Source of the DNA: Candidatus Omnitrophota bacterium
GTDB taxonomy: Bacteria; Omnitrophota; Gorgyraeia; B26-G9
Assembly (NCBI GenBank): GCA_043805415.1
Contig: JAZDHZ010000033.1
Coordinates: 153,600 to 217,599, forward strand
Reading direction: 5' to 3'
DNA: 64,000 nt
The notes below the pieces were generated by a model. That model did no database searches. It was given only the letters and a program-made list of their open reading frames with translations, and had not been told where the DNA came from. This document shows, piece by piece, positions 6,652 through 42,642 of this stretch (positions are counted from its first letter, which is position 1; each line of letters opens with the position of its first letter). The position numbers and the translations under genes are program-made.

Positions 6652-8468
6652 GTAAAATTTCCGATAAAATTTTAGACGAAATACAACAACGCTGTGATAT
6701 TACTGAGATAATTTCAGGATATATTCCGCTGAAAAAGGCGGGGAGAAATTTTAAAGCTAACTGTCCTTTTCATCATGAGAAGACACCTTCTTTCGTGGTT
6801 AGTCCAGATAAGCAGATATTTCATTGTTTTGGTTGTGGTTCAGGCGGAGATGTTTTTAGTTTTATTATGAAACAAGAGCGCATGGATTTTCCTGAAGCAG
6901 TGCGGTTTTTAGGAGATAAAGTTGGACTTAAAGTTGAAACTGAAGCTGAAGCTGAAGACAAAGCTAATTATTCTCAGGCTGGTTCATTTACCGGATCGCT
7001 ATATAGAGTAAATGAGTTAGCGGAAAAATATTTTCAACAAAATCTTTTAAATCCAAATGATCAGCAAGCTCAATTGGCACTAAGTTATTTGCAGAAACGC
7101 GGGTTGGAGCAGTCTGCGATTGAAAATTTTCATATTGGATTCGCGGTTGATAAATGGGATGGATTGCTTAATTTCTTAAGAAAAAGCGGTATAAGCATAG
7201 AGTTAATGCTTAAATCAGGACTGATTGTAAAAAATTCAACTGGAAAAACATACGATTGCTTTAGAAATCGGATAATGTTCCCAATTTGCAATAGCCAAGG
7301 CAAAAGGATCGGGTTTGGTGGTAGAATCTGGAACTCTTTACCAGGGGCAAATTTGGCTAATCAGCCTAAGTATATAAATTCGCCGGAAACTGAAGTTTAT
7401 AAAAAAAGTAAAAATCTTTTTGGTTTTAATCAAAGTAAAAAATTCATCATTGATAAAGATTATTGTATAGTAGTTGAAGGTTATTTGGATGTTATTGTTC
7501 CTTTTGAAGCCGGGATAAAAAATATTGCGGCTTCATGCGGAACAGCTTTTACTAGTGATCACGCGCGGATAGTAAAACGATACACGCAGAATGTGGTTAT
7601 TGTATTTGACGCTGATGATGCGGGTCAGGAAGCGACATTAAGAAGTCTTGATTTGTTAATAGAAGAAGGCTTAAATGTGCGAATTGCCAGACTTGAACCG
7701 GGGTTTGATCCGGATTCTTTTGTGCGTAAATATGGCGCTGAGAAATTTCAAAATTTAGTTGATCAAGCGAACAGTTTGTTTGACTATAAACTTAATTTGC
7801 TTTGTTTAAAGTTAAACAAAGCTGTTCCGGAGGAAAAAGCAAGAATTGCCGCGAGCATGCTTGAGACTATAGATAAGATAAAAAATGCTATTTTGCGCAG
7901 CACATATATCAAGAAATTGTCGGAAAGTTTGTCAGTCAAAGAAGAAATTTTATTTTCCGAGCTTAAAAAAATTAAATCATTTTCAACTGTTTCCAGTGAT
8001 CTTAGCAAAGTTAATAATCTTAAAACTTATAAAATGAGTAAGATCGCTGAGAAGATGCTTATGTCCTTGATGTTTGAAGATGGAAAATTTATCAAAGATC
8101 TGAAACAGGTTATAGGCTATGATGAATTTAGCGACCCGATCGCTAAGAAAATTGTTAAACATCTCTATGAGCAAGATTTGTCAGAATGTAAACCCGCGGA
8201 GTTGTTTAAGGAAATAGGCGATAATCAAATAAACTCTTTTATTTGTAATCTGCTTGTTTCGGATATGGGTATAGATAATAAGAAAAAAAGTTTTGAGGAT
8301 TGTGTTCGGAAAATAAAAAAAGACAAAATACAATTGGAGCTTGATTGTTTACAGCAGCGGATTAATAGGCTAAAACAATCAGAGTCTCAAGAGTTACTGA
8401 GTTTATTAAAAAAATACAATGAATTAAAAAAGGAGCAAGGCAGATATGAACCAGGCAATAAAAAATAA
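6648..8468 (+). CDS. dnaG: DNA primase
   Basis: CHC2 zinc finger [11 protein letters not shown]...[20 protein letters not shown]...DADDAG; ATGA overlap with upstream gene. Confidence 0.9.
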
Positions 8469-10275
8469 GGCTAAAAAAGCTGTAAAAGAAATTGCCAAAA
8501 AACTAAATTTGGTAAAAAAAATTGTAAGAAAGAAAACTGCAACTGAAAAAAACATTAAAAAAGGTAGCGATAAAATAGTGAGAAATGTTGAGAAAAATAT
8601 GGATGCTAAAAATAAGAAAAAAATATTAAAAAAATCCGCGAAAGAAGCGGCAAAACAAATAGCGGATGAATCAACGACAAAGACAAAAATCGATTCGGCT
8701 AAAACACTTAAACAACTTGCTAAGAAGACAAAAACCTTGGGAAAGTTAATTGCTCAAGGTAAGAAAAAAGGATATTTGACTTTTGAAGAATTAAATCATG
8801 CTTTACCTGATGATGTTGTTACCTCAGAAGAAATCGAAGAGATTCTGATAGTGCTTGATAGTGAAAATATCGAAGTTGTTGATTCAGAAGAAGATGTTGT
8901 AAAAGATAAACAAGATGTGGAAGAAGAATCTGATGATGCAAAGGTGTCGGCTGCTTCAGAAAGCATGCCAACATATATTGAAGATCCGGTTAGGATGTAT
9001 TTAAGGCAAATGGGACAGATTTCTTTGCTTACACGTGAAGAAGAGTTGGCTTTAGCTATAGAGATTGAGGCAGCGGAGCTGACTTTACGCAAAGCTGTGT
9101 TGAGTTGTCCCTCTTCTCGTTATTATGTTCTCAAGGTAGCAAATCAAATCATTAATAAAGAGGTCAATGCCGAGGATGTTATAAGGGATGAGTTTAAGCT
9201 TAGCCATGCTAAGCTATTGAAGCGGGTTGAAAAGCTGACTGCTAGTTTGCGCTCTGTTCGTAAGCCGGAAGCGACATTGGATCTTTTATTAGAGTTTAAT
9301 CTTACGACAGCGGTAATTGAGGATATCGCGGAGCAGGTGCAAAATAGTGCTGAAAGCATATCGGTAATTGAGCGAGAAATTTCCAAGCAAAGGCAGAAAA
9401 AAGTTCGCGGTCAAATTCAAAAGCTGCAGGTTAAAAAAGCAAAATTATTTCGGGAATTTGGCGGAACAATAGGCGATATTAGAAAGGCACTGCGCAATAT
9501 TAAGCGTTGTCAGCATGAATTTACCTGTGTTAAGCGATCATTGGTTGAGGCAAATTTGCGTCTAGTTGTGAGTATTGCTAAAAAATATACTAACCGAGGG
9601 TTGTCCTTCCTTGATCTTATTCAAGAAGGAAATATCGGATTGATGAAAGCTGTGGATAAATTTGAATATAAAAGAGGTTATAAGTTCAGCACTTACGCGA
9701 CTTGGTGGATTAGGCAGGCGATTACTCGATCGATAGCTGATCAGTCCCGGACGATCAGAATCCCTGTTCATATGACTGAAACGATTAACAAATTAATCAG
9801 AGCTTCCCGCTTTCTTGTGCAGGAAAATGGAAGAGAGCCCACTCCCGAAGAATTGAGCAAAATGATGCAAATTTCTGTAGATAAGATAAGGGGAATAATA
9901 AAAATAGCTCAGGAACCGATTTCTTTACAAACTCCAATCGGGGAAGAAGGCGACACTCATTTTGGTGATTTTATCGAAGATAAAAGAGTGGTCAGCCCGG
10001 CAACCGCAACAGCGCATTCTATGCTTAAAGAGCAGATGGAACAAGTAATGGAAACTCTTTCCGATCGGGAAAAGAAAGTGCTTGTTCTGCGTTTTGGGAT
10101 TAAAGACGGATATCCCCGGACACTAGAAGAAGTAGGAAAGATATTCAGTGTTACTCGAGAAAGAGTGCGACAGATTGAAGCTAAGGCATTAAGAAAATTA
10201 AGACATCCGACGCGAAGTAAAAAACTGCGTGATTTTTTGGAAATAACCATGACTGAACATATGGATTTTCTCTAA
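8446..10275 (+). CDS. rpoD: RNA polymerase sigma-70 (RpoD) with a Lys-rich N-terminal extension
   Basis: Regions 2-4 conserved ([46 protein letters not shown]); AAAAAGGAG RBS. Confidence 0.9.
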
Positions 10276-10738: not shown

Positions 10739-10935
10739 GTAAAAACTGGCAAAAGGCTTGGAATCAGCAAAACATACTAACTCTGGCTTTTTCTGATGAT
10801 TTGAGTAGCGTTTTGATCATTAATCAGGATAGAATCTGTCGGAAGTTAATCATCTGCGCTCGCCATCAAAAAAAGATAATTGATATCCTGTTTTAATGTG
10901 CGTTGTTTGTTCTTCAACCAAGAAAGATTTTTATT

Positions 10936-11643
10936 ATGAAAGCAATAGAAATACTTAAAGAACTACAAAAGATTGATTCCCAGGTTTTTAAAACTAAAGA
11001 AGCGCTGGAAGATAAACCAAGGCAAATAGCTATTTTAGAAGAAGAATTTGCCGAACGTTCCAGCTTATTAAAGCGATTAGAAGACGAATTAAAAAAAGTG
11101 CAGATTGGACATAAAGAGAAAGATCTTGAACTTCAGTCGAAGGAAGCATCAGTAGATAAACACAAAAACCAGTTGTCTCAAATTAAAACAAATAAAGAAT
11201 ACAATGCTTTGCAAGTAGAGATTGAAAAAATGAAGGCGGATAATTCTCTGTTGGAAGAGCAGATAATTATGCTGCTGGATAAAATAGATACATTAAAAGC
11301 TTCGATTAATAAAGAAAAAGAACTTTTGGCTCAGGAAGAAAAAAAGTTAAAGACTGCTAAGGCAGCGGTTGAACTTGAGATTAGAGAATTGCAAGAAACA
11401 ATTAACAAATTAAATCTTCAAAGAAAAATAGCGATTACTGCGGATTTAAAACCAGAAGTTTTAGATTTGTATGAGCGGATTAGAGAAAATAGAGGTGAAA
11501 TAGCAATTGTCCCTGTTCGAGATGGTTCTTGCTCAGGCTGTTTTATGAACTTAAGGGCTCAAGTGCTTAATGAATTGAGCTTGGGTAAACTTCTTACTTG
11601 TGATACTTGTTCGAGAATATTATATGTCGAATCTGAAAATTAA
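10936..11643 (+). CDS. coiled-coil protein with C-terminal C4 zinc ribbon (DUF164/COG1579 family)
   Basis: Long heptad-rich region then CSGCFMNL...CDTCSRILY; ORF could start at TTG 10903. Confidence 0.6.
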   Translation: MKAIEILKELQKIDSQVFKTKEALEDKPRQIAILEEEFAERSSLLKRLEDELKKVQIGHKEKDLELQSKEASVDKHKNQLSQIKTNKEYNALQVEIEKMKADNSLLEEQIIMLLDKIDTLKASINKEKELLAQEEKKLKTAKAAVELEIRELQETINKLNLQRKIAITADLKPEVLDLYERIRENRGEIAIVPVRDGSCSGCFMNLRAQVLNELSLGKLLTCDTCSRILYVESEN

Positions 11644-13529: not shown

Positions 13530-13559
13530 ATTGACATAACCTATGTAAAAACAATATAA
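13530..13559 (+). promoter_or_regulatory. candidate promoter TTGACA-N17/18-ATATAAT for the efflux operon
   Basis: TTGACATAACC...AACAATATAATAACAATATAAT read upstream of 13623. Confidence 0.4.
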
Positions 13560-13622
13560 TAACAATATAATAACACCATAAAGAATTATATTATTAGAGG
13601 ATGATTATCTTGGCAAAAGGAA

Positions 13623-15764
13623 TTGCGTAAGATGCTGCGAATTAACTATCAAAAAACCGCTTTATGTACTATTTTCATTAATTTTTGTCTCTTATTGTTT
13701 ACTTTCTGTTGTTTTGCTGCTGAACCTGCTTCATTAAAAATCTTAAATATTGATAAAAAAGATTATGGCATTGTGCTTAATATCGAGCATTCGCATCCTC
13801 CTGTTTTGTTTACAGTTGATGAGAGCGAGCGGCCTTACCGTCTGACGATTAATATTATTGGATCAATAGTTACTTTTAAGCAATATGAAAATATTCCGAT
13901 AGAGATACCAGTTAGGTATATGGGGATTAATCGGATTATTGTTGCGGAAAAAATAAACTATAATATGAGCCCTAAAGAGTCAGTAAGCATTACTCTTGAT
14001 CTAGACAGAGAGTTTAAATATGATATTGATTCTCAGTTTAACGGACAATATATTAATCTTAAAGTTTTACCTAATGCCGCGCCTGCACCAAAAGAAAGTT
14101 TAGCTACACGAGAAAAAGAATTAGAACCTTCTGAAAAAATAAAAATCGTAAAAGCCTCTAAAGATTTTGAAACAAAAAAAGCCAGAGAAAAACTGGAAGA
14201 GTTTACTCAGAAAAAAAGAATTGAGCTAATTAGAAAAGAAAGTAAAGAAAAGGTATCAATAGTAAGAGACAGAGCTAAAGAGCGGGTTGAGTCAGGGACA
14301 ACTATCAAAGAGGCTCAGCAGAAATTGCAAGCCCAAGCTGAATTAAGCACTTTGCCCGCGGCAAGAGACCAGCTGGCTGAAACAAATCTTTATCAAGATA
14401 TCAATATGCCTTCTCAGCTAAAACCAATGCTGCGTAGAAGTACCGGTACTAGTGTGACAAGTTATCAAGATTGTATTAATATCGCTCTTGCTGCCCACCT
14501 ACCTATCCAAATTGCCCAAGAACAGGAAAAACTGGCCAAACTGCGTGTTCGTGAAGCTAGGCGTGCTTTTTATCCGGCATTTCTCGGCGAGTGGAATGAA
14601 TCTGATGGTAACACTGTTACAGAGCCTTACCGAGGTCGTTCTTATGGGTTTCAGGCAGAACAGCAGATTTTTACTGGTGGGAAATTAATGTCAACTTTAC
14701 GAAAAGAGCAATTAGGTTTAACGATTTCAAAAGGTAATTCTGATCGAATTAAACAGGATTTAATGTTTCAAGTAAGCAAGGCGTATTATGAATTGGTATT
14801 GGCTAAGATAACTTGCGATATGATGATTCGGCTAAAAGATGAAACAAGCAAAATTTTAGAGCGGGTTGAGGCTGAGTTTGCGATTCAGTCTGCTACTCCA
14901 GCTGAATTATTAGGTGCTCAGGCTTCGTTTAATCGGGTTTGTTATCAAGTAGCTAATGCTGATCGAGGTTTGGCCATGGCAAAGCTTGCTTTGGAAAAAG
15001 AGATGTTTACTGAAGAACTTAATGTTGATCAGCTTGACTATCATTTGGGAAGAAATAAAATTGATGTTAATTTAGACGAATGTTTAGAGCTAGCGTTTAG
15101 ACATAGACCGGAAATTAAGGTATTGGAACAAACCATGCAAGCGGCTAAATATAGTCAAGATATAATTAAAAGCGAAGAGCTTCCCAATGTTTCTTTAGTT
15201 GGTTCTTATGGGAGAAGCGGTGAATCTTTTAGCCAGAGAGATTTAAATCTTGCTACGGAGTGGAGCCTTATGGGTAAAGTTAAATGGTTTTTAGGCGGGA
15301 ATACAGTTGAAACATATTATAAAAAAGATAAAGTTAGCCCTTTTAAAATAACTAAAACAGATACTAATGTGGATTCGCAGGCTTTAAATGCTAAATTTTC
15401 TTTTTGGGACAATTTGGCGCATTTCTCGCAAAAGAAAGAAGCGCAAATTACCCGTAAACAAGCTTTAAAAGATTATGAAGAGATGAAGAATAAGATTCGG
15501 CAAGAGACTGAAGATTCATATTATTCTTATCAAAAATATAGTGTGCAATTATCTTTGGCAATTAATGAAATCGGATATCGCCGGAAGCAACTGGAAATAG
15601 CAAAAACCAGAAAAGGAATGAACGAAGCAAGTGGAGGAGATGTTATTGATGCCGAAACTCAGCTGGTAGACGCGAATTCGAATATGCAGCAGGCATTGGC
15701 TGGAATCAATTTGTCCATAGCTAGTTTAAACCGGGCTATAGGCGTGATAAATTATTTCCACTAA
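13623..15764 (+). CDS. TolC-family outer membrane efflux protein with ~280-aa N-terminal extension (AMIN-like beta domain plus K/E-rich linker)
   Basis: C-terminal ~430 aa is typical OMF two-repeat domain; N-terminus has signal/TM plus RLTINIIG...ITLDLD AMIN-like pattern. Confidence 0.75.
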   Translation: MRKMLRINYQKTALCTIFINFCLLLFTFCCFAAEPASLKILNIDKKDYGIVLNIEHSHPPVLFTVDESERPYRLTINIIGSIVTFKQYENIPIEIPVRYMGINRIIVAEKINYNMSPKESVSITLDLDREFKYDIDSQFNGQYINLKVLPNAAPAPKESLATREKELEPSEKIKIVKASKDFETKKAREKLEEFTQKKRIELIRKESKEKVSIVRDRAKERVESGTTIKEAQQKLQAQAELSTLPAARDQLAETNLYQDINMPSQLKPMLRRSTGTSVTSYQDCINIALAAHLPIQIAQEQEKLAKLRVREARRAFYPAFLGEWNESDGNTVTEPYRGRSYGFQAEQQIFTGGKLMSTLRKEQLGLTISKGNSDRIKQDLMFQVSKAYYELVLAKITCDMMIRLKDETSKILERVEAEFAIQSATPAELLGAQASFNRVCYQVANADRGLAMAKLALEKEMFTEELNVDQLDYHLGRNKIDVNLDECLELAFRHRPEIKVLEQTMQAAKYSQDIIKSEELPNVSLVGSYGRSGESFSQRDLNLATEWSLMGKVKWFLGGNTVETYYKKDKVSPFKITKTDTNVDSQALNAKFSFWDNLAHFSQKKEAQITRKQALKDYEEMKNKIRQETEDSYYSYQKYSVQLSLAINEIGYRRKQLEIAKTRKGMNEASGGDVIDAETQLVDANSNMQQALAGINLSIASLNRAIGVINYFH

Positions 15765-15821: not shown

Positions 15822-17000
15822 ATGAGAAAATCCACATTCATTTTTATCGCGGTACTAATAATTATAATCGGAATTGTTTGGTGGGGTATTGAAAAAGGCG
15901 GTTGGATAAGTAAGGACAAAGTCGAGGAAGATGAGATAAGAAGGGAAATGTCATTTGATAAAGAAGGCGAAAGCCAAAGATCTCCGATGAAACGCGGTTT
16001 GTCGATAAAGGTCTATAAAATTTCCCGTTCTACATTTGAAGATGTTTTGCCCACAATGGGCTCGATAAAAGCCCTAATAACAACTAAACTTAATTTTGAG
16101 GTTCCCGGGCTGGTTGAATTGATAAATTTTCGGGAAGGAGATTTGGTCAAAGAAGGACAGTTGATCTCCAGATTAAAACAAAACGAGGCATTACTAAAAA
16201 TTGATTATAATCGAGCCAAACTAAAATCAGCTATGGTTAGTTTATCGCAAGTAGAAAAAAAAGTTCAATTACATCAACAGTTATTTGAAATTGGTGCCAT
16301 AAATCGACTGAAACTTTCAGAGGTTGAAGCAGAAGCAGGAACCGCTAAACATCAGGTAGAAGCTTCTCAGGTTGAGATTGATTCAGCTAAACAGGAATTA
16401 AAGAAAACTGAAATGTATGCTCCTATAGATTGTATTATTGGCGAGCGCAATATAGAAGTGGGGGAATTGGTTTCTCCGTATACGCCTAAAGCAATACAAG
16501 TTCTTGATCTTAACACGGTTTATGCTGAAATCGGAGTTGTGGAGAGAGATGTTACAAAAATAAAAATTGGTCAACTGGCTAGAGTATATGTAGACGCGTA
16601 TCCGGATCTGCCTTTTGACGGAATTATTGATAATATCTATCCGGCGCTATCGGATAAGACAAGAACTTTGCCGGTTGAGATAAAGATCGATAACTCACGC
16701 CGAATTCTTATGCCTGGCATGTTTACGCGCGCTGATATAATTCTCTACGAAAAACCAGGGGTAATTAGTATTCCTAGAATTGCTTTAAAAAAGATGCAGG
16801 ATGCTTCTTTAGTATATATTATTGATGAAGCGACGAATTCAGCCCAGGAACGTTTAGTGGAAACGGGTTATGAATCAACAGATTATATTGAAATCATCAG
16901 AGGTTTAAAGGAAGGAGATCTGGTAGCAATTTCGAATGTTGAACAATTAACTTCCGGAACTCCGGTTCAAATCACAGAAATTAAAGTTCGTGAAATGTGA
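15822..17000 (+). CDS. RND efflux periplasmic adaptor (membrane fusion protein, HlyD family)
   Basis: N-terminal TM, coiled-coil hairpin, beta-barrel/lipoyl motifs typical of MFP; AGGAGG RBS. Confidence 0.8.
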   Translation: MRKSTFIFIAVLIIIIGIVWWGIEKGGWISKDKVEEDEIRREMSFDKEGESQRSPMKRGLSIKVYKISRSTFEDVLPTMGSIKALITTKLNFEVPGLVELINFREGDLVKEGQLISRLKQNEALLKIDYNRAKLKSAMVSLSQVEKKVQLHQQLFEIGAINRLKLSEVEAEAGTAKHQVEASQVEIDSAKQELKKTEMYAPIDCIIGERNIEVGELVSPYTPKAIQVLDLNTVYAEIGVVERDVTKIKIGQLARVYVDAYPDLPFDGIIDNIYPALSDKTRTLPVEIKIDNSRRILMPGMFTRADIILYEKPGVISIPRIALKKMQDASLVYIIDEATNSAQERLVETGYESTDYIEIIRGLKEGDLVAISNVEQLTSGTPVQITEIKVREM

Positions 17001-17071: not shown

Positions 17072-20000
17072 ATGAGTCTTCCGGAAATTTCAGTTAAAAA
17101 GCCAGTAACAGTATTGATGTTTACTGCCGGGGTTATTCTCCTGGGAGTAATCTCCTGGAGCCGTCTTTCACAGGAGCTTTTTCCTCCGATTACATATCCT
17201 CAGATAACTGTAGTTACTTCTTATGAAAACGCGGCTCCCGAGGAAATAGAAGCCTTAATTACCCGTCCCATAGAAGAATCAGTTAGTGCCGCGGCTAATA
17301 TTCGCAAAGTTAGTTCAACATCAAGAGAAGGAACTAGTATTGTTATTTGTGAATTTAATTGGAATACTAATATGGATTTTGCTGGTTTAAATGTTCGCGA
17401 GAAGGTTGATCTGATTAAAGAAAAACTTCCGCGGGATTCTGAAGAACCGATAGTAATGAAATTTAATCCTTTCGATACTCCAATCATGATATTAAGCGTT
17501 ACTAGTCAGGGTGAAGTATTATCTCCTTATGAATTACGCGAAATCTCGCGCCGGGTTATCAAGGATGAAATCGAAAAAATTGATGGAGTTGCGCAAGTCG
17601 TAATGACCGGCGGCAGAGAAAGAGAGATTCTTGTAGAACTTAATCAGCAGCGTCTGCGCGCGTTTAATGTCTCGATAATGGATGTTATTGAATTAATCAA
17701 ACAGGCTAATTTAAATTACCCCGCGGGAACAATTGAAACAAGTTTTTATGAATATTTGATTAGAACAATTGGTGAATTCACAAAAGTTAGTGAAATGTAT
17801 AAAGTGCCTTTGCTTATTGAGGATAAAACTGATAAGGAGGAGCAGCGTAATCCGGAACAAATAACCGCGGAAGAAAAAGAAAGACAAAAAAGGGTTATTT
17901 ACCTGCGACAATTAGGGGAAGTTAAAGATACTTTAAAAGAGCAGGACAGTATTTCTCGTTATAATGGTTCGGACAATATTTCTTTAAGTGTACAAAAACA
18001 AGCTGATTCTAATACCCTCGCTGTTAATACGAAAATATATGAAAAATTAGAGCTATTAAAACAGACTTTGCCGGATGAGGTCAAAATAAAAGTTGTTTAT
18101 GACCAGTCAGTGTTTATTAGCCAATCAATCAATGAATTACGGGATAATGCTTTGCAAGGCGGAATTCTCGCGTTTTTTATTTTACTGATTTTTTTAAGAA
18201 ATATTCGCAGCGCGGTAGTTGTTACCTTAGGTATTCCGATCGCGATTCTTTTTACTTTTATTTTAATGTTTTTTAATAAGCTATCCTTAAATATGATGTC
18301 CTTAGGAGGTCTGGCTCTGGGAGTCGGGATGCTTGTTGATAATGGGATTGTGGTTATTGAAAATATTTATCGGCATCATCAAATGAAAAAAGATGCTAAA
18401 ACCGCGGCCATGGAAGCCTCTAATGAAGTTTTTAGCGCGGTCATCGGGTCTACCTTAACAACAGTTGCCGTATTTTTGCCATTAGTTTTTGTTGTGGGAA
18501 TCGCCGGACAGTTATTTAAAGAACTGGCGTTAACCGTAACTTTTTCTTTGGTCGCGTCGGTAATAACTGCTATGAGTTTGACGCCGATGTTTATGTCCCG
18601 GGGTAAAATAGGGAAAATATCATTGGGGACTGATGAAAACAAGATTATTGAAATGCAAAAGCTGAAAAGTGGAAAACAGTATAAAGGTATATTTCCGTAT
18701 CTAGTGGTTATAACTATAATTGTAGTTACACTTTTAGTGGCTTTGTTTAGTTTGAAAATTCTTTTTTCTCTAGACCGAGAATTTATGCCTAAATTGGACC
18801 AAAGGCAGTTTGTTGTGAAACTAACCATGCCGGCCGGTACTAATCTTAATGCAACGGATGCAGTAGTCCGGAGAGTAGAGGATACTGTACTGAGTTTTCA
18901 AGCAATTAAAGATGTTACTGTAAATATTGGTTCCAGCAAGGAGGCAAAAAAAACCGGTGCGGTAGAGGTGCTGGGAGCCAATCAAGCCAATATTATTGCT
19001 AACCTTAATTCTCGCCCTGATCGGGGAATAATGAGTATATTTAAACAGGAAAAAACAACTGATCAGGCTTCTAACATTGCCACAGCTGATTTGATTCAAC
19101 AGCTAAAAGCTAAACTGGAAACTGTTGATTTGCAGGATGCGCAACTTGAATATATATTACAGGAAAGTGTTTTTAAATCTGTTTTTGCCGGAAGTGCTCC
19201 TTTGGTAATTGTTCTCCGAGGATTTGACTTTGAGGGAATTCTTATCCCCACAGCTAAAGAAATTAAAAAACAGTTGGAAAAAATAGACGGGGTTTATGGG
19301 ATAAAAGACAGTTTAACTCCGCCCAGTCCAGAAATCAAAATCATTGTTAGAAAAGATAGGGCAGCTTTATATCAGCTTAGTGTAAACCAGATATCCTCGA
19401 TTGCTCAGGCAGCGATTCGGGGATATGTCGCGTCTAAATTTAAAGAAGAAGGCCGGGAAATAGATATTCGGGTTCGCTTAAGAAAAGATGATAGTAAGGA
19501 TTATAATAAAATTAGTAAATTGTTTGTATTTTCCCCTTTGGGAATAAATATTTTCTTAGAACAAGTAGCCTATTTAACTCAAGGGCTGGGACCTACTGAA
19601 ATTAAACGTGAAAGCAAACAAAGAGTAGTTTTTGTCAGCGCCAATATTTATAAGCGTGGGCTTAATGAGATTGTCAAAGATGTGGAAAAAATTATTGAAG
19701 ATATAAAGCTTGAACTGCCGGCTAATTATGCTATTGAACTTGGCGGAGAAAATAAAGAAATGGAAGAGTCTTTTAAGAGCATGCAATTCGCGCTTATTCT
19801 CGCGTTGCTGCTTGTTTATATGATTATGGCATCTGAATTTGAGTCGCTAATTCAGCCGTTTATTATTATGTGTACTGTCCCCTTATCATTAATTGGCGTA
19901 AGCTGGGTGCTTTATTTTACGCATACTCCGCTTAGTGTAGTTGTGGCTTTAGGGTTTATAATGCTCGGAGGAATTGTTGTTAATAATGGAATTCTTTTGA

Positions 20001-20731
20001 TTGATTTTATTAATATCGCCCGGAAACAGGGGTTAGGAATTTTTGAGGCCGCAATTCAGTCAAGTAAAGTTCGGGCGCGTCCAATACTGATGACTTCCCT
20101 GACAACAATTTTTGGTTTAATGCCTTTGGCATTTGCTTTGGGAGAAGGGTCTGAATTAAGAGCTCCTATGGCAAGAACTGTAATGGGTGGTTTAACAACC
20201 GCTGCTTTTTTAACCCTGTTTATCGTTCCGAGCATATACATTCTCTTGGAAACAATAAAAGAATGGTTTAATAGAATTTTTAAATCCGATTCGGAAGCTG
20301 ATGAAGAACAGATTCTTATCAAACCTAAAAATGTAATAATGGCGCAAATTGATCTTACCCACCTATCTCGAGCAAAAAATGAGCAGGTTGATGCTGAGCT
20401 AGAAGAGCAGGACAGCGTAAGAAGCAAAGTCCCTTATCCCGGAGAATCTGATTTTAACCAGGAATCAGATATAGAAGATAAGCCGGAAGATGAATCAACT
20501 GTCTCAGAAAGCGAGAAAGACCAAATCCAGCTAAATATTCGCCAGCAGCAGTTAGTTGATTTTGTGAAGGATTCCGGAAAAATTACTCGACTTGAATATG
20601 TAGTTAAATTCAAGGTGACATTGCCTGTTGCTGATAAAGAGCTGGGTGAATTAGTGGATATGAATATACTGGTTTCTTCTGGAGACGGTCCGCATAAGGT
20701 CTTTAGATTGAAAGAGGAGAATTTAGACTAG
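17072..20731 (+). CDS. RND efflux permease (AcrB/HAE1 family) with charged insert and ~190-aa acidic C-terminal tail
   Basis: MSLPEISVKKPVTVLMFTAGVILLG and 12-TM RND architecture; 1219 aa versus ~1040 typical. Confidence 0.85.
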   Translation: MSLPEISVKKPVTVLMFTAGVILLGVISWSRLSQELFPPITYPQITVVTSYENAAPEEIEALITRPIEESVSAAANIRKVSSTSREGTSIVICEFNWNTNMDFAGLNVREKVDLIKEKLPRDSEEPIVMKFNPFDTPIMILSVTSQGEVLSPYELREISRRVIKDEIEKIDGVAQVVMTGGREREILVELNQQRLRAFNVSIMDVIELIKQANLNYPAGTIETSFYEYLIRTIGEFTKVSEMYKVPLLIEDKTDKEEQRNPEQITAEEKERQKRVIYLRQLGEVKDTLKEQDSISRYNGSDNISLSVQKQADSNTLAVNTKIYEKLELLKQTLPDEVKIKVVYDQSVFISQSINELRDNALQGGILAFFILLIFLRNIRSAVVVTLGIPIAILFTFILMFFNKLSLNMMSLGGLALGVGMLVDNGIVVIENIYRHHQMKKDAKTAAMEASNEVFSAVIGSTLTTVAVFLPLVFVVGIAGQLFKELALTVTFSLVASVITAMSLTPMFMSRGKIGKISLGTDENKIIEMQKLKSGKQYKGIFPYLVVITIIVVTLLVALFSLKILFSLDREFMPKLDQRQFVVKLTMPAGTNLNATDAVVRRVEDTVLSFQAIKDVTVNIGSSKEAKKTGAVEVLGANQANIIANLNSRPDRGIMSIFKQEKTTDQASNIATADLIQQLKAKLETVDLQDAQLEYILQESVFKSVFAGSAPLVIVLRGFDFEGILIPTAKEIKKQLEKIDGVYGIKDSLTPPSPEIKIIVRKDRAALYQLSVNQISSIAQAAIRGYVASKFKEEGREIDIRVRLRKDDSKDYNKISKLFVFSPLGINIFLEQVAYLTQGLGPTEIKRESKQRVVFVSANIYKRGLNEIVKDVEKIIEDIKLELPANYAIELGGENKEMEESFKSMQFALILALLLVYMIMASEFESLIQPFIIMCTVPLSLIGVSWVLYFTHTPLSVVVALGFIMLGGIVVNNGILLIDFINIARKQGLGIFEAAIQSSKVRARPILMTSLTTIFGLMPLAFALGEGSELRAPMARTVMGGLTTAAFLTLFIVPSIYILLETIKEWFNRIFKSDSEADEEQILIKPKNVIMAQIDLTHLSRAKNEQVDAELEEQDSVRSKVPYPGESDFNQESDIEDKPEDESTVSESEKDQIQLNIRQQQLVDFVKDSGKITRLEYVVKFKVTLPVADKELGELVDMNILVSSGDGPHKVFRLKEENLD

Positions 20732-20732
20732 A

Positions 20733-23700
20733 ATGAGTCTTCCCCGCTATTCTGTTAATCGACCGATAACCATCACCATGATTTTTGTGGCAGCATTGAT
20801 CCTGGGGTGGGTCTCGCTGACTAAACTTCCGATAGAGCTTATGCCTAATACCAGCTTTGGTAATGTCACTATCTTTATCAATGTTCGGGGTGGAATTCCT
20901 CCTGTGGAAATTGAAGAACGCATTACCCGTCCGATTGAGGAAGCGGTATCATCTGCCAGTCATATCCGAAGTATTGAATCTACCTCTGAAGAAGCAAGCG
21001 CGACCATTGTTATTAAATTCGAACCAGGCACTAATATGGATTTTGCGGCATTGGAGGTCAGAGAAAAATTTGCCCGCGTTAAAAATGATCTTCCTGAGGA
21101 AATTGAAAAACCTGTTATTGCTAAATACGAATATTCTGATGTTCCGGTAATGATTTTGGCAATGACCGGCGGTAAACGCTATACTCCGGAAATGCTGGGG
21201 AAAATTGTTGATGAAAGCTTGAAGACAAGACTGGAGCGGATCAACGGAGTAGCGGATGTTGAAGTAGGCGGCAGAAGAGAAAGAAAGATACTTGTCGAAA
21301 TTGATCAATCAAAGCTAGATGCATATAATATGCCGATTAATAAAGTTATCAATGTGCTTGGCTCGAATAACTTAAATCTGTTAGCCGGGGATATCGAGAG
21401 AACTAGCGATAAACTTTTAATAAGAATAATCGGAGAATTTACTGATGTTAAAACTATTGAAAATATTGGTATTGCCGCATCGCAGACAGGGGTAATAATC
21501 AGATTAAAGGAACTTGCTAAGGTTAAAGATTCTTATCTTGAAGCAACAAGTTATGCTCGGACTAATTTAGCGCCGACGGTTTCTATTTATGTGCAAAAAG
21601 AAAGTATGGCCAATACGCTAAAGATGACAGATGCTATTGTTAAAGAGCTGGAAGCTTTTAAAAAAGATGAAAACCTTGGGGAAAGAGGAATTAGATTAAT
21701 TCCGGTTTACAACCAGGGTGATTTTATCAGCAAAGCAATACAAGATGTCCAAAGCTCTTTGATTTTTGGCGGTTTTCTGGCAATTTGTGTATTATGGATA
21801 TTCTTGCGTGATATTGGGGCCACATTCACTGTGGGCATCGCGATTCCCACGGCGATTATTTGCACTTTTATTATGATGTTTTTTCAAAATTTAACACTTA
21901 ATATCATGACTTTAAGCGGATTAGCTCTGGGCAGTGGAATGCTGGTCGATAATGCTATTGTTGTGTTGGATAATATTTCTAAAAAAAGAGAAATGGGTTT
22001 TGATCGGAGAGAATCGTCTATAGTTGGCGCGGAAGAAATGTGGTTGGCTATTTTTGCTTCCACTTTAACAACAATTATTGTTTTTTTGCCTTTTATTTTT
22101 GTGAATAAAGAAATCAGGCTGTTGTATGAAGGTCTGGCTATGACAATTGTCTACGCGCTTTGTGCTAGTCTTTTTGTTGCCGTGACATTAGTTCCTGTGT
22201 TATCGACAGCTATGGGAAAACGGAAAACCGAAAAAGAACAGGAAAAGGAAGATAACCAAAAACAGTGGTTTTCGGAGGTTTCCGCTAAACCTAAAGAAGA
22301 TAAATCGCAAATTAGTAAATTTCTGCATGTTCTGCAAATTGCTTATCGAAAAACATTGGGGCGCGCGCTTAGGTTTAGGCTGTATCTGGTTATCGCGGTT
22401 TTTTGTCTTTTTGGCATAGCTTTTTTTGTGTTTTCTGAAAAGCTGGGCATGGAATTTCTCGGTAAAACCGAGGAAAATGAATTTACAATTTTTATTGAAT
22501 TACCTACCGGAGCAAAACTGGATATTTCCGATCAGGTTGTTGGTGAGGTTGAAAAGATTCTTGCTAGTGTGTCTGAGGTTAAAACCGTTTCCAGCCGGAT
22601 TAAGCCATGGTCAAATCGAGTTTTTGTAAAGCTGGTTCCTCTTTCCCAAAGAGAAAGATCAAATAAAGAAGTTATAGATGATCTTAGAGATAAGGTAAAG
22701 GAAATCCCTAATGCCTTTATTTATTTTGAAGAACCGCAAAGTATGGCAGCCAAAGAGCTGCATATTGAAATTTATGGATATGATTATAATACACTTAGAG
22801 AAATTGCCGTAAATATTTCCAAAAGAATTGGGCAAATCCCTGGTTTTGTTGATGTTAAAATTAGAATGCGGGAAAAACGCCCGGAACTATTAGCGGTTGT
22901 GGATAAAGCAAAAGCTGCTAAATGGGGACTTACTGTTTCGAAGATCTCGGATACGATTCACGCGAAAATGCGTGGTTTAGTCGCAACCAGATTCCATTCT
23001 GAGTCCAAACAAGTGGAAACTATTGCTAGGTTGAGAAAAGAAGACAGAAAAACATTTGATGATGTGCATAAACTTAGCATCGTTGGGGAGGATGGCAACC
23101 TTGTGCTTTTTGAACAGGTTGCCAATTTCATGCCTGGAGAGGGACCGACTGAAATATGGCGCAAAAATAAACAAAGAATGATTGAAGTCAGCGCGACAAT
23201 GAGCAAATATGATCTTTCTAAGTCAGTGGAGATAATTAAAGAAGATTTTAAAGATATGAAACTGCCGAAGAACTATTATTATCGTTTTGGCGGCGATTAT
23301 GAAAAAATGATCAAAGGTAAAAGTGAACTTGTCTTTGTTATCTGGGTTACGCTAGCATTGATCTACATGGTATTGGCTTCGCTTTTTGCTTCTTATGTGC
23401 AGCCTTTAGTTATTTTGTCCAGTGTGCCTTTATCTTTAATTGGAGTGACATTAGCGCTGTGGGTTTTTAAAAAGCCTAAAAGTGTGTCTGTTTTTATTGG
23501 GGTTATAATGCTTGCCGGTATTGTAGTTAATAACGCGATTATTCTGGTTGATCGGATCAACTATTTTACCCGCAATAAGAATGCAAATCGTTTTAAAGCG
23601 GCAATGTTGGCGGGGATAGACAGATTAAGACCGATTATGATGACTTCCTGCACAACTTTGTTTGGATTGCTGCCCATGGCCTTAGATCGAACCGAAGGCG

Positions 23701-23891
23701 CGGGATTATGGGCTCCTTTGGCGATTACTGTATTGGGAGGCTTATTAGTTTCGACAATATTAACTCTGTTTATTGTTCCCAGTATATACTTGTTATTTAC
23801 GGATATCCCGCTTTTATTTAAACCAAAGAAAAAAAATGCCTACAATTTTGACTGGAAGGGATTTGAAGAAATCCCGGATTTGCCCAAATGA
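20733..23891 (+). CDS. RND efflux permease (AcrB/HAE1 family), second tandem paralogue (MdtB/MdtC-like arrangement)
   Basis: MSLPRYSVNRPITITMIFVAALILG and RND architecture; start 1 nt after previous stop. Confidence 0.85.
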   Translation: MSLPRYSVNRPITITMIFVAALILGWVSLTKLPIELMPNTSFGNVTIFINVRGGIPPVEIEERITRPIEEAVSSASHIRSIESTSEEASATIVIKFEPGTNMDFAALEVREKFARVKNDLPEEIEKPVIAKYEYSDVPVMILAMTGGKRYTPEMLGKIVDESLKTRLERINGVADVEVGGRRERKILVEIDQSKLDAYNMPINKVINVLGSNNLNLLAGDIERTSDKLLIRIIGEFTDVKTIENIGIAASQTGVIIRLKELAKVKDSYLEATSYARTNLAPTVSIYVQKESMANTLKMTDAIVKELEAFKKDENLGERGIRLIPVYNQGDFISKAIQDVQSSLIFGGFLAICVLWIFLRDIGATFTVGIAIPTAIICTFIMMFFQNLTLNIMTLSGLALGSGMLVDNAIVVLDNISKKREMGFDRRESSIVGAEEMWLAIFASTLTTIIVFLPFIFVNKEIRLLYEGLAMTIVYALCASLFVAVTLVPVLSTAMGKRKTEKEQEKEDNQKQWFSEVSAKPKEDKSQISKFLHVLQIAYRKTLGRALRFRLYLVIAVFCLFGIAFFVFSEKLGMEFLGKTEENEFTIFIELPTGAKLDISDQVVGEVEKILASVSEVKTVSSRIKPWSNRVFVKLVPLSQRERSNKEVIDDLRDKVKEIPNAFIYFEEPQSMAAKELHIEIYGYDYNTLREIAVNISKRIGQIPGFVDVKIRMREKRPELLAVVDKAKAAKWGLTVSKISDTIHAKMRGLVATRFHSESKQVETIARLRKEDRKTFDDVHKLSIVGEDGNLVLFEQVANFMPGEGPTEIWRKNKQRMIEVSATMSKYDLSKSVEIIKEDFKDMKLPKNYYYRFGGDYEKMIKGKSELVFVIWVTLALIYMVLASLFASYVQPLVILSSVPLSLIGVTLALWVFKKPKSVSVFIGVIMLAGIVVNNAIILVDRINYFTRNKNANRFKAAMLAGIDRLRPIMMTSCTTLFGLLPMALDRTEGAGLWAPLAITVLGGLLVSTILTLFIVPSIYLLFTDIPLLFKPKKKNAYNFDWKGFEEIPDLPK

Positions 23892-40604: not shown

Positions 40605-40707
40605 TAAAAATAATTGTCAAGATTGGGCAGAAAGATTGAGAGAAGAGTATTATCGATTAGAAAGTGAAAATAATCTTAATCAATGCAAATAGGAGAAATA
40701 AAACAAG

Positions 40708-41556
40708 GTGAAGAAAAAAACAAGTTTAATTATTTTAGTAATCGTTTTAATTTGCTGGATTTTTTTAAAAAATCCTCAAAAAGCTAAGAATATAGAAGGT
40801 GAATTATATTGTGCATTTTCTAATAAAATTTATAAGATAGATTTGGACAGGTTAAAGAGTAATGTTTTATATGAAGAAGAAGGGAGTTTCATCGATCAAA
40901 TAAGTTTTTTTAAGAAAGATGTTTTTATCTTACAGAAAAAAAATAAAGAAATTTACAAGTTTAATATCTTAGAAAAAGATTCTGATTTTATTTGCGAAGG
41001 TAAGAAGCCAATATATGTTAGAGAAGCTAATAGTATTTTTTATTATAATAAAGAGGCTCTTTATAGAAGAAGCTTTGAAAGTAATGTGGAAGAAAAAATA
41101 ACTGATGATATTTATATTTTTGCTCCTAAAGAATTAAAAAGCATTTATTATGATGAACCGCCAGTGCAGATTTCGTCACAAGAAATAGTTTTCTGTAATA
41201 AAGATCAGAAAATAGTAATATATAACTTTGCAAGTAAAGACAAAAGGATTCTAGATTTTAAAGGGTATCATGTTTGGAGTGGTTATGGTGATATGCTTGT
41301 TTGTAAAAAAAATGATAACTTTTATTTGCTTGATATAGTTACCGGAAACATAAATAGGATTAAAATTACTCCGAGATGGAATGTGATTTTTGTGAAGGGT
41401 TATAATTGTTTAATTTATTCTAGCGTAAGATTTTTTTCTTTGTCGGAAGCTGAAGATTTATTTGTTTATTGGATAGAAGAAAAAAAAGAGGAAAAACTTA
41501 TCTCGAATTGTTATGTTTCTAGTGGAATTTATTTAGGGAAGAAAGAGGGGGAATAG
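40708..41556 (+). CDS. hypothetical protein with N-terminal signal/TM anchor (282 aa), island cargo
   Basis: GTG start, AGGAG RBS; MKKKTSLIILVIVLICWIFL anchor; repetitive beta-rich body; no known motifs. Confidence 0.4.
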   Translation: MKKKTSLIILVIVLICWIFLKNPQKAKNIEGELYCAFSNKIYKIDLDRLKSNVLYEEEGSFIDQISFFKKDVFILQKKNKEIYKFNILEKDSDFICEGKKPIYVREANSIFYYNKEALYRRSFESNVEEKITDDIYIFAPKELKSIYYDEPPVQISSQEIVFCNKDQKIVIYNFASKDKRILDFKGYHVWSGYGDMLVCKKNDNFYLLDIVTGNINRIKITPRWNVIFVKGYNCLIYSSVRFFSLSEAEDLFVYWIEEKKEEKLISNCYVSSGIYLGKKEGE

Positions 41557-41581
41557 GGGGAAATCTACGGGACATATAAAA

Positions 41582-41634
41582 GGGTGATAGGGTCAAAAAG
41601 GGTGATAGAAAAAAAGGTGATAGGAAGGTGATAG
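41582..41634 (+). repeat. short tandem repeat array, unit (g)ggtgatag x4, abutting left TIR of transposase element 2
   Basis: Read directly. Confidence 0.8.
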
Positions 41635-41660
41635 GGTCAGACCCGGAAAACGGAAAAGAT

Positions 41661-41689
41661 TGACGAGTTAAGGTTTTTTTAGTATAATT
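41661..41689 (+). promoter_or_regulatory. element-internal promoter TTGACG-17-TATAAT, 5 nt before transposase ATG (near-leaderless)
   Basis: Hexamers read directly. Confidence 0.5.
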
Positions 41690-41694
41690 TAACA

Positions 41695-42642
41695 ATGGCG
41701 CGACCATATAGATTGCAAGGAGAAAATTGTTTTTATCATATCACCAGCAGGGGAGATGATCGCAAGAGAATCTTCATAAGCGATTATGATTTTGAGAAAT
41801 TTTTAGAGTATTTAGAAAAAGCTAAAGAAAAATATAAGTTTAAATTATATGCATACTGCTTGATGTCAAACCACTATCATTTATTTATCGAAACCCTACA
41901 GCCGAATCTATCTAAAATCATGCAATATCTCAATACTGCCTATACAGTATACTATAATAAAAAACGCAAGAAGACAGGGCATTTGTTCCAAGGTAGGTAT
42001 AAATCGATAATGGTGGATGAAGATAGTTATTTTTTAGAACTAACCCGTTATATCCACCTAAATCCCGTACGGGCAAAAATGGTAGAAAGGCCGGGAGAAT
42101 ATAAGTGGTCAAGCTATAAGGGCTATTTAAAAAATAAAACAGATAAATATATAGATTATGACGCGCTGAACGATTATTTGGGAATGGATAGTGCAAGTTA
42201 TAAAGAATTTGTATCAAACTCAATAAATAGGGAAGATAGTTTATTTAAAGAAGTTTATGCGGGATTTTTCCTAGGAGGGAAGGCGTTTATAGAGGAAAAA
42301 CTAGCGGAATTTAGGCCTGAGATAGAGGAAGGGGATTTTGCTCATAAGCGCAAACTTAGATCTGAAATATCAATAGAAGAAATAATCAAAGCAGTAGGTG
42401 CTGTTTTTAAGGAAAATAATAACGAGGTATTAGGAAAAAAGAATAGCCAATCAAATTTAAGGAAAATAGCAATATATTTAGCCCGCAGAATAACGCAATT
42501 AAGTAATAAAGAAATAGGAGCACATTTTAATATTAGCGATTCAGCAGTAGGAAAGGCAGTCCATAGGGTATCAGAGTTATTGCAAGAGGATCAAGGGTTG
42601 AAAAAGAGAACAAATGAACTGTTTTCCGTTTTCCGGGTCTGA
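41695..42642 (+). CDS. IS200/IS605-family Y1 (HUH) transposase fused to a DnaA domain-IV-like HTH (diverged paralogue of 38179-39129)
   Basis: MARPYRLQGEN..YHITSRG...YCLMSNHYHLFIET; C-terminal LRKIAIYLARRITQLSNKEIGAHFNISDSAV; TGA stop inside right TIR. Confidence 0.75.
   Translation: MARPYRLQGENCFYHITSRGDDRKRIFISDYDFEKFLEYLEKAKEKYKFKLYAYCLMSNHYHLFIETLQPNLSKIMQYLNTAYTVYYNKKRKKTGHLFQGRYKSIMVDEDSYFLELTRYIHLNPVRAKMVERPGEYKWSSYKGYLKNKTDKYIDYDALNDYLGMDSASYKEFVSNSINREDSLFKEVYAGFFLGGKAFIEEKLAEFRPEIEEGDFAHKRKLRSEISIEEIIKAVGAVFKENNNEVLGKKNSQSNLRKIAIYLARRITQLSNKEIGAHFNISDSAVGKAVHRVSELLQEDQGLKKRTNELFSVFRV

Follow-up and report, generated by a model that had tools for sequence, protein, structure and literature searches.

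A 64,000-nucleotide stretch of the genome of a Candidatus Omnitrophota bacterium (GenBank assembly GCA_043805415.1, contig JAZDHZ010000033.1, positions 153,600 to 217,599 of the forward strand; the whole stretch is called the window here, and all coordinates refer to it) encodes an outer-membrane factor (OMF) of the TolC family with an uncommon architecture. Between the signal peptide and the TolC-type core lies a β-domain that we conclude to be a divergent AMIN domain, judging from Pfam matches in its relatives, profile searches and its predicted fold; it is followed by a charged helix of constant length. Computation establishes the open reading frame (ORF), the order of its domains, the homology and fold of the AMIN domain, the helix and the OMF core, as well as a conserved operon in which the gene is accompanied by a periplasmic adaptor and two RND permeases. 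By analogy with other AMIN proteins, we regard it as fairly probable that this OMF is tied, or targeted, to peptidoglycan through the AMIN arm.

A divergent AMIN domain on a TolC-family core

The ORF spans 13623-15764 on the forward strand and encodes 713 residues when counted from the first in-frame TTG, the frame used for residue numbers throughout. ATG 13632 is probably the true start, giving 710 residues, because AAAGGA lies 10 nt upstream of it (13616-13621) and P0001, an NCBI protein of 100% identity, has 710 residues. That protein, from an Omnitrophota metagenome-assembled genome (MAG), is named "TolC family protein". Databases label the family simply in this way, and most of its members carry no AMIN annotation.

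The predicted Sec-type signal peptide extends from the ATG start to residue 33 (residues 4-33; 13632-13721) and the AMIN-like β-domain occupies residues 34-150 (13722-14072). Then come a variable linker of proline, alanine and charged residues (residues 151-170; 14073-14132), a single long charged α-helix (residues 171-239; 14133-14339) and a conserved non-helical segment (residues 240-277; 14340-14453). The TolC-family core makes up the rest (residues 278-713, with the stop codon; 14454-15764). All of these lie on the forward strand. An AlphaFold2 (AF2) model of the full-length protein has a mean predicted local distance difference test score (pLDDT) of 72.

About 32 full-length homologues, each of about 710 residues and with 47-85% identity, come without exception from Omnitrophota or PVC metagenome bins. 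Since every one of them covers the N-terminal extension, the extension is genuine and conserved, and a mis-called start or low-complexity filler does not account for it. A survey of homologues for the same extension, proposed in the first-pass annotation of this DNA, thus found it in the full-length relatives from these bins. Lengths and conservation were read from an alignment of 29 orthologues (48-85% identity), and the N-terminal domains of 25 orthologues were scanned with Pfam. Domain-level conservation in the 29 sequences, together with a confident fold, rules out the idea that the extension is low in complexity and nothing else.

The signal peptide has a basic n-region and about 21 hydrophobic residues, and ends in the site C-F-A|A (consensus C-Y-A|Q). 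Its pattern would fit cleavage by signal peptidase I after C-F-A. Throughout the aligned orthologues, A or S occupies position -1 and C, A, S or V position -3, so that the hydrophobic N-terminus, described earlier as a signal or transmembrane segment, indeed carries a conserved small-x-small site. A lipobox, [LVI][ASTVI][GAS]C, is absent from the N-terminus in the orthologue alignment, which rules out a lipoprotein OMF.

The core had been called an outer-membrane factor at about residues 280-713, and this is confirmed. Pfam OEP (PF02321) matches it in two stretches with E 2.3e-38 and 132.3 bits, against a cut-off of 22, and its length is 436 residues in 29 of 29 orthologues. A single-sequence phmmer search of the core against the PDB gave no match; a profile of the OMF family brought up PDB chains of TolC (E 1e-6 to 1e-7). 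Foldseek aligned the full model with TolC, ST50, OprM, CusC, CmeC and others (probability 1.0, TMt 0.55-0.64) at about 13% identity. The core is thus genuine but divergent. Scores for the named subfamilies were 100.2 bits for TIGR01844 (TolC), under its 225-bit cut-off, and 19.9 bits for TIGR01845 (NodT lipoprotein), against a cut-off of 210 bits; the protein is a divergent OMF that belongs to neither subfamily. The β-region of the second OEP repeat is about 40 residues longer than that of the first (about 75 vs. 35 residues), and the second OEP match stretches 187 model positions over 224 residues. In the monomer model the β-strand regions come out poorly, with pLDDT <50 at residues 319-350 and 519-596. 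The protein's most strictly conserved residues also lie in 519-596 (15177-15410), in the motifs WFLGGNT and KxSFWDNLA. The enlarged second β-hairpin region could form an extra barrel loop or a cap.

The β-domain begins at about residue 34, right after the predicted cleavage site. AMIN domains are almost always N-terminal (De Souza et al., 2008; PMC2572700), and the position accords with this. Its length is 115-117 residues in 29 of 29 orthologues, with a mean identity of 50% to the query. The β-rich segment of about 110 residues noted earlier is thus real and conserved, and is modelled by AF2 with 10 strands at pLDDT 90. F85, Y88 and Q138 are invariant in it, and the block F..YEN.PIE.P (F85, Y88, N90, P92-I93-E94, P96) is nearly so.

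It took Pfam, hhalign and fold comparison to make the AMIN link. Eight of the 25 orthologue N-domains match Pfam AMIN (PF11741, gathering cut-off 20.5 bits), the best at E 3.3e-6, and no other family is matched by more than one member. With 23.0 bits, the orthologue P0026 matches positions 3-91 of the 101 in the model. Also over the cut-off are two full-length, more distantly related Omnitrophota homologues, P0039 (24.3 bits) and P0042 (25.9 bits); P0042 is 39% identical to the window protein from the signal peptide through to the C-terminus. The AMIN call made earlier therefore stands by way of orthologues and homologues, but not by a Pfam match of the window sequence itself. Membership is transitive, because the relatives match and the protein in the window does not.

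Profile searches lead to the same family. A hidden Markov model of the N-domain alignment, run against 1.84 billion representative proteins, gave 8 matches at E<=0.001. Six are orthologues, homologues or fragments. One (P0040, 2134 residues) is an Ephrin_rec_like repeat protein and was set aside as spurious. The last (P0041, E 4.6e-5), from Nitrospirota, is named "AMIN domain-containing protein" and matches AMIN in three copies at E 2.1e-34. Aligned with these three AMIN domains by hhalign, the N-domain profile gave a probability of 89% and E 2.3e-6.

The predicted fold points the same way. AF2 models residues 31-165 as an all-β domain of 10 strands (pLDDT 90.3, predicted TM-score 0.83), which agrees with the all-β AMIN fold of about eight strands in two sheets seen in AmiC (4BIN). 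With this model, Foldseek ranked four PDB entries at the top (probability 1.00, TM-score 0.54-0.61): 3jc8_Q, Myxococcus xanthus PilQ; 4bin, Escherichia coli AmiC; and 4aqz and 4av2, the B2 domain of Neisseria meningitidis PilQ. The remaining entries among the top 30 have probabilities of 0.18 or less and TM-scores below 0.2. The structure check suggested for this domain thus gave no credible match besides the AMIN domains of PilQ and AmiC.

At the level of strands, De Souza et al. (2008; PMC2572700) describe Rxxx(D/E) signatures for AMIN domains, placed on the second member of strand pairs. The pattern PxRLxIxI-G, IKRIxVEE and VxIxxELD follows this logic. The signature is clear in the consensus as I-K-R-I-I-V-E-E, and many orthologues have P-R-R-L-x-I-(D/E). 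It is degenerate in the window sequence (YRLTIN) and missing from the first strand pair.

A probable spacer helix of constant length

The stretch of 128 residues that separates the β-domain from the core had been read as a K/E-rich coiled coil of about 120 residues. It consists instead of three parts: a variable linker of 20 residues, a helix of 69 and a conserved non-helical segment of 38. The linker (residues 151-170) is 17-30 residues long among orthologues, with a mean identity of 27%, and pLDDT falls below 50 at residues 158-168. The helix (residues 171-239) is one continuous helix in the AF2 model, at moderate confidence (pLDDT about 60-76). It measures exactly 69 residues in 29 of 29 orthologues, with the adjoining linker free to vary in length. 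At 1.5 Å per residue it would be about 100 Å long. Charged residues make up 49% of it in the window protein and 39-61% across orthologues.

Charge and helicity thus hold for these 69 residues, but the coiled coil does not. Over the best 28-residue stretch, the heptad a/d positions have a hydrophobic occupancy of 0.50 in the window helix, vs. 0.54±0.10 in shuffled sequences; across orthologues the values are 0.50-0.75, vs. 0.47-0.61±0.09 in shuffles. By this measure the helix has no heptad seam. The positive control, a CT398-like coiled-coil protein encoded at 10903-11643, reached 0.88. Several conserved hydrophobic positions persist in the helix, and hydrophobic positions recur mostly every three residues, with a peak of Fourier power at a period of 3.0 rather than 3.5. 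Pairs of opposite charge at i/i+3 and i/i+4 exceed the shuffles in all 29 sequences, if modestly (z +0.4 to +3.0).

In phmmer searches of the PDB the charged region found noise only (ribosomal proteins and flagellin, E>=0.15), and on that result a specific homology of the helix was rejected. Residues 171-239 are probably a charged, single α-helix serving as a spacer of fixed length, with no sign of a coiled coil. A geometric argument also favors a single helix over an axial bundle, by analogy with solved channels: the N-termini of TolC-type proteins sit far apart, and the duct and the adaptor would fill the symmetry axis.

The segment that joins the helix to the core (residues 240-277) has the consensus LPxARQQIxEKNLYKDIxMPSExKP. 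P263 is invariant, and Y257, D259 and P268 are conserved in at least 90% of sequences. Despite this conservation, the monomer model gives it a pLDDT below 50; as an arm, it may pack against the trimer once that has assembled.

Proposed tethering to the cell wall

In a conserved tripartite RND efflux system, the gene product would form the exit duct through the outer membrane. Export and cleavage of the signal peptide would yield a mature protein without lipid, and its C-terminal 436 residues would trimerize into a duct of TolC type, working with the adaptor and the two RND permeases. The N-terminus of each protomer would continue outward from the duct as the 38-residue arm, the charged helix of about 100 Å, the flexible linker and, at the tip, the AMIN domain. 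With one peptidoglycan-binding module per protomer on a spacer arm, the duct could be fixed and positioned at the sacculus. The AMIN arm would then take the place of the N-terminal lipid of OprM or of the partner of TolC, YbjP.

Wall tethering is proposed because AMIN domains bind peptidoglycan in both AmiC and PilQ. In PilQ they do so and direct localization (PMC5285504); for AmiC we go by the citation of Rocaboy 2013 in bioRxiv 10.64898/2026.07.30.741596. In E. coli, peptidoglycan lies at the AcrA-TolC interface, and the N-terminal helix of TolC runs from the equatorial domain to the membrane, with the N-terminus outside the tunnel at the equatorial level (PMC13082787). By analogy, the wall at the junction of TolC and adaptor would be within easy reach of an arm of about 100 Å.

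Several results weigh against this reading. The window protein gave no match to Pfam AMIN, either whole at E<=1 or as the isolated domain at E<=10, and the N-domain profile found nothing significant among PDB sequences (chance-level hits only, E>=0.5). The Foldseek E-values of the β-domain are modest, 2e-3 to 5e-2 at TM-scores of about 0.6. In the hhalign alignment the most conserved block (F85...P96) falls at a gap relative to canonical AMIN; therefore the ligand could differ from that of AmiC and PilQ. The confidence of the helix model is moderate, and the heptad test was a crude in-house score of a/d occupancy rather than COILS or MARCOIL. To our knowledge, no peptidoglycan-binding residues have been defined for AMIN domains, and we know of no experimental work on the Omnitrophota envelope.

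Other explanations account for part of these observations. The AMIN domain might be mainly a targeting signal that recruits OMF monomers to nascent septal peptidoglycan, so that the duct is pre-installed at the future poles and not statically anchored. There is precedent for this: PilQ monomers reach future division sites via their N-terminal AMIN domains before oligomerizing (PMC5285504), the AMIN domain of AmiC directs it to the septum (PMC2572700), and the domain follows the signal peptide here just as in PilQ. A strictly constant helix of 69 residues, however, fits a geometric role in the assembled state better than transient targeting. We find targeting as the main role doubtful, while noting that targeting and anchoring can coexist. 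A bolder extension would make the AMIN-helix-TolC protein a principal link between outer membrane and wall in this Omnitrophota lineage, with the helix of strictly 69 residues as a molecular ruler for the distance from the duct, or the outer membrane, to the peptidoglycan, the roles of Lpp or OmpM combined with that of TolC, and the pump installed at division sites by the AMIN domain; this is unlikely. That the protein is mainly structural, an outer-membrane-to-peptidoglycan staple like OmpM or SlpA in which the helix sets the spacing and efflux comes second, is distinctly unlikely. Its domain logic is that of OmpM and SlpA, in which a helical stalk joins a wall-binding domain to an outer-membrane barrel (PMC10628300, PMC9388160), and the invariant length of the helix and a housekeeping neighborhood conserved in 10 species suit such a role. 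The helix lacks a coiled-coil seam, though, and since TolC N-termini stand 120° apart outside the tunnel, an axial trimeric stalk would probably clash with the docking site of the adaptor. Sharing an operon with the pump, moreover, argues for a role specific to the pump.

The two other alternatives concern the N-terminal parts themselves. A β-domain derived from AMIN could have ceased to bind peptidoglycan and instead dock the adaptor, the extended first RND permease or another partner, or gate or regulate the duct. The failure of the window sequence to match Pfam AMIN suits this, as do the narrowness of the domain family (the 8 profile matches in 1.84 billion representatives) and the family-specific motif F..YEN.PIE.P at the place where canonical AMIN has a gap. 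Yet the fold and the strand motifs (PxRLxIxI, IKRIxVEE, VxIxxELD) follow canonical AMIN, and no result points to a partner, which leaves docking or gating very improbable. The hydrophobic N-terminus might also be an uncleaved inner-membrane anchor, a single polypeptide then spanning inner membrane, wall and outer membrane. The stretch is long, about 21 residues, and AF2 draws a helix at residues 2-28; but its end carries the small-x-small motif in all orthologues, and outer-membrane barrels need release from the inner membrane before they can assemble. We consider such an anchor barely credible. A cleaved, wall-tethered or wall-targeted OMF is the reading that we prefer.

Operon and known systems

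Immediately 3′ of the OMF gene, and on the same strand, follow the adaptor and both permeases. The periplasmic adaptor (MFP; 15822-17000) scores 227 bits with TIGR01730 RND_mfp (cut-off 94.9) and matches Pfam HlyD_D23. RND permease 1 (17072-20731, 1219 residues) matches Pfam ACR_tran with E 2.6e-230 over residues 5-1059, and RND permease 2 (20733-23891, 1052 residues) with E 3.5e-230. Both are syntenic, the first in 10 species, and they share 35% identity. RND permease 2 is followed by helicase-nuclease genes, which have nothing to do with transport. One adaptor gene followed by two paralogous RND genes (17072-23891) is an MdtABC-like order. By that analogy, the two permeases suggest a heteromeric pump. 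MdtB and MdtC are among the closer names in NCBIfam equivalog searches, in which all scores are far under the cut-offs. RND permease 1 has a C-terminal extension of about 160 residues past ACR_tran (20240-20731), in which an acidic stretch precedes about 60 residues (LNIRQQQLVDFVKDSGKITRLEYVV...). The latter look like a small winged-helix-type domain, and the extension, presumably cytoplasmic, matches no Pfam or NCBIfam family. It is kept in orthologous loci, and at the P0042 locus RND permease 1 is also long, with 1171 residues.

The order CT398-like, RNase H, GDSL hydrolase, OMF, MFP, RND1, RND2 is kept in 10 GTDB species representatives, all Omnitrophota except for one bin labelled Planctomycetia. 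In that MAG of an "uncultured Planctomycetia bacterium" (L006, CAYTGV010000002.1), the same seven-gene block occurs with OMF, adaptor and RND proteins at about 60-84% identity; the bin is probably mislabelled. The block OMF-MFP-RND-RND also occurs in two divergent clades, that of P0042 (L013, an Omnitrophota MAG) and that of P0044 (L012, a metagenome). P0043 and P0044, only 26-29% identical in the core, keep this plan: behind a signal peptide come a domain with the AMIN pattern (Pfam E 0.05) and a K/E-rich helix that is longer still, followed by the OMF. The three-part design therefore predates the orthologue group of the window protein. Aligned by hhalign, the N-domain profile and the N-domain of P0044 are in register but the match is weak (probability 20%) and was given no weight beyond that Pfam hint.

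Upstream of the operon is a σ70-type promoter-like site, TTGACA-18 nt-TATAAT (13531-13560, forward strand), which agrees with the consensus at 12 of 12 positions and is the top-scoring σ70 site across 12-28 kb; it is a candidate by consensus match only. A mini-ORF of nine codons (MIILAKGIA-stop) lies within 13601-13630, just 5′ of the OMF start, where it overlaps the ribosome-binding site of the OMF gene. As annotated, the orthologue P0019 starts with MIIVLAKGIAK, which resembles the mini-ORF and is in frame with its OMF. From this likeness the 5′ leader of the gene seems to be conserved.

In the wider window, G+C content is 31-41%, GC skew is positive, strongly so, in every 2-kb bin, and 38 of the 41 ORFs of at least 150 residues lie on the forward strand. 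ORF strand and GC skew together indicate strong co-orientation of genes with replication. Upstream of the OMF gene, an ORF of 609 residues (8446-10275) shows a σ70 region 2-4 signature, recognized by eye from the translation, behind a lysine-rich N-terminal extension of about 130 residues. Farther downstream, a 2200-residue RHS / FG-GAP / PKD-repeat protein (30985-37587) precedes two ORFs (38179-39129 and 41695-42642), in each of which an IS200-like Y1 transposase domain is joined to a DnaA C-terminal helix-turn-helix, with an RHS-repeat fragment between them (39157-40113). The region 30985-42642 resembles a toxin-tip replacement or rearrangement zone.

The fusion had been judged not to be a standard architecture. 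It is unusual, but it has a precedent: De Souza et al. (2008; PMC2572700) list an AMIN domain with two OEP domains, "in at least one instance" (architecture vii), and an AMIN domain with a TolA-like charged helical region (architecture viii). A full-text literature search found no other paper that discusses an AMIN-OMF. The AMIN-TolC fusion is thus rare and little known, with a precedent from 2008. What is new is a conserved Omnitrophota family that joins architectures (vii) and (viii), a spacer helix of invariant length, and the link of the fusion to a two-permease RND operon. Since wall-binding modules are fused to many outer-membrane proteins, the fusion is unsurprising in principle, if unusual and mechanistically suggestive.

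The relation between tripartite efflux pumps and the peptidoglycan layer is a matter of continuing debate, and the lipoprotein partner of TolC, YbjP, was found only recently (PMC13082787). If our reading is true, this TolC homologue, bearing a wall-binding module of its own on an arm of fixed length, would offer a simple genetic and biochemical handle on this question. Efflux ducts would also join secretins and cyanobacterial TonB-dependent transporters as outer-membrane machines that carry AMIN domains. In practice little follows from this, the organism being uncultured and the AMIN-OEP idea having been in the literature since 2008.

Of the known systems, the AMIN-OEP protein of De Souza et al. 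(2008) is alike in having an N-terminal AMIN domain before two OEP repeats, and in its predicted role of positioning a periplasmic transport structure. It differs in being a one-sentence listing with no further analysis, taken from a genome available in 2008 and hence not from Omnitrophota. The 2008 survey also keeps architectures (vii) and (viii) apart, whereas the Omnitrophota family combines both.

The core fold, the two OEP repeats, and the adaptor and RND partners are those of E. coli TolC and of OprM and CusC. Other OMFs carry their anchoring device at the N-terminus: a lipid in OprM, and in TolC the YbjP linker that runs along the N-terminal helix (PMC13082787). Unlike these, the Omnitrophota OMF is only about 13% identical to solved OMFs, has no lipobox and has a second hairpin region about 40 residues longer, and its anchoring would be to the wall and not to the outer membrane. 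MdtABC-type pumps share the order of one adaptor gene and then two paralogous RND genes; they differ in that the Omnitrophota operon also encodes the OMF, its RND permease 1 has a C-terminal extension, and the scores are far under the equivalog cut-offs.

Among machines of other kinds, the PilQ secretins of Pseudomonas aeruginosa, M. xanthus and N. meningitidis (B2) likewise place an N-terminal AMIN domain on an outer-membrane channel, and PilQ provides the best structural matches of the β-domain. The channel of PilQ is a secretin, however, rather than a TolC-type α/β barrel, and its AMIN domains are usually in tandem on flexible linkers, with no rigid helix of 69 residues. OmpM of diderm Firmicutes and SlpA of Deinococcus likewise combine an outer-membrane trimer with a long helical spacer and a module that binds the wall. 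In these the module is SLH and not AMIN, the spacer is a true trimeric coiled coil on the axis, and the barrel is a porin and not an efflux duct. In contrast to their stalk, the Omnitrophota helix has no heptad seam, and the symmetry axis is taken by the duct. Finally, the cyanobacterial AMIN-TonB-dependent transporters such as CctA also have an AMIN domain between the signal peptide and an outer-membrane transporter; it is a noteworthy feature of CctA, hypothesized to serve wall anchoring or localization (bioRxiv 10.64898/2026.07.30.741596). CctA differs as an importer with a 22-strand barrel and a plug, is confined to cyanobacteria, and has no long helical spacer.

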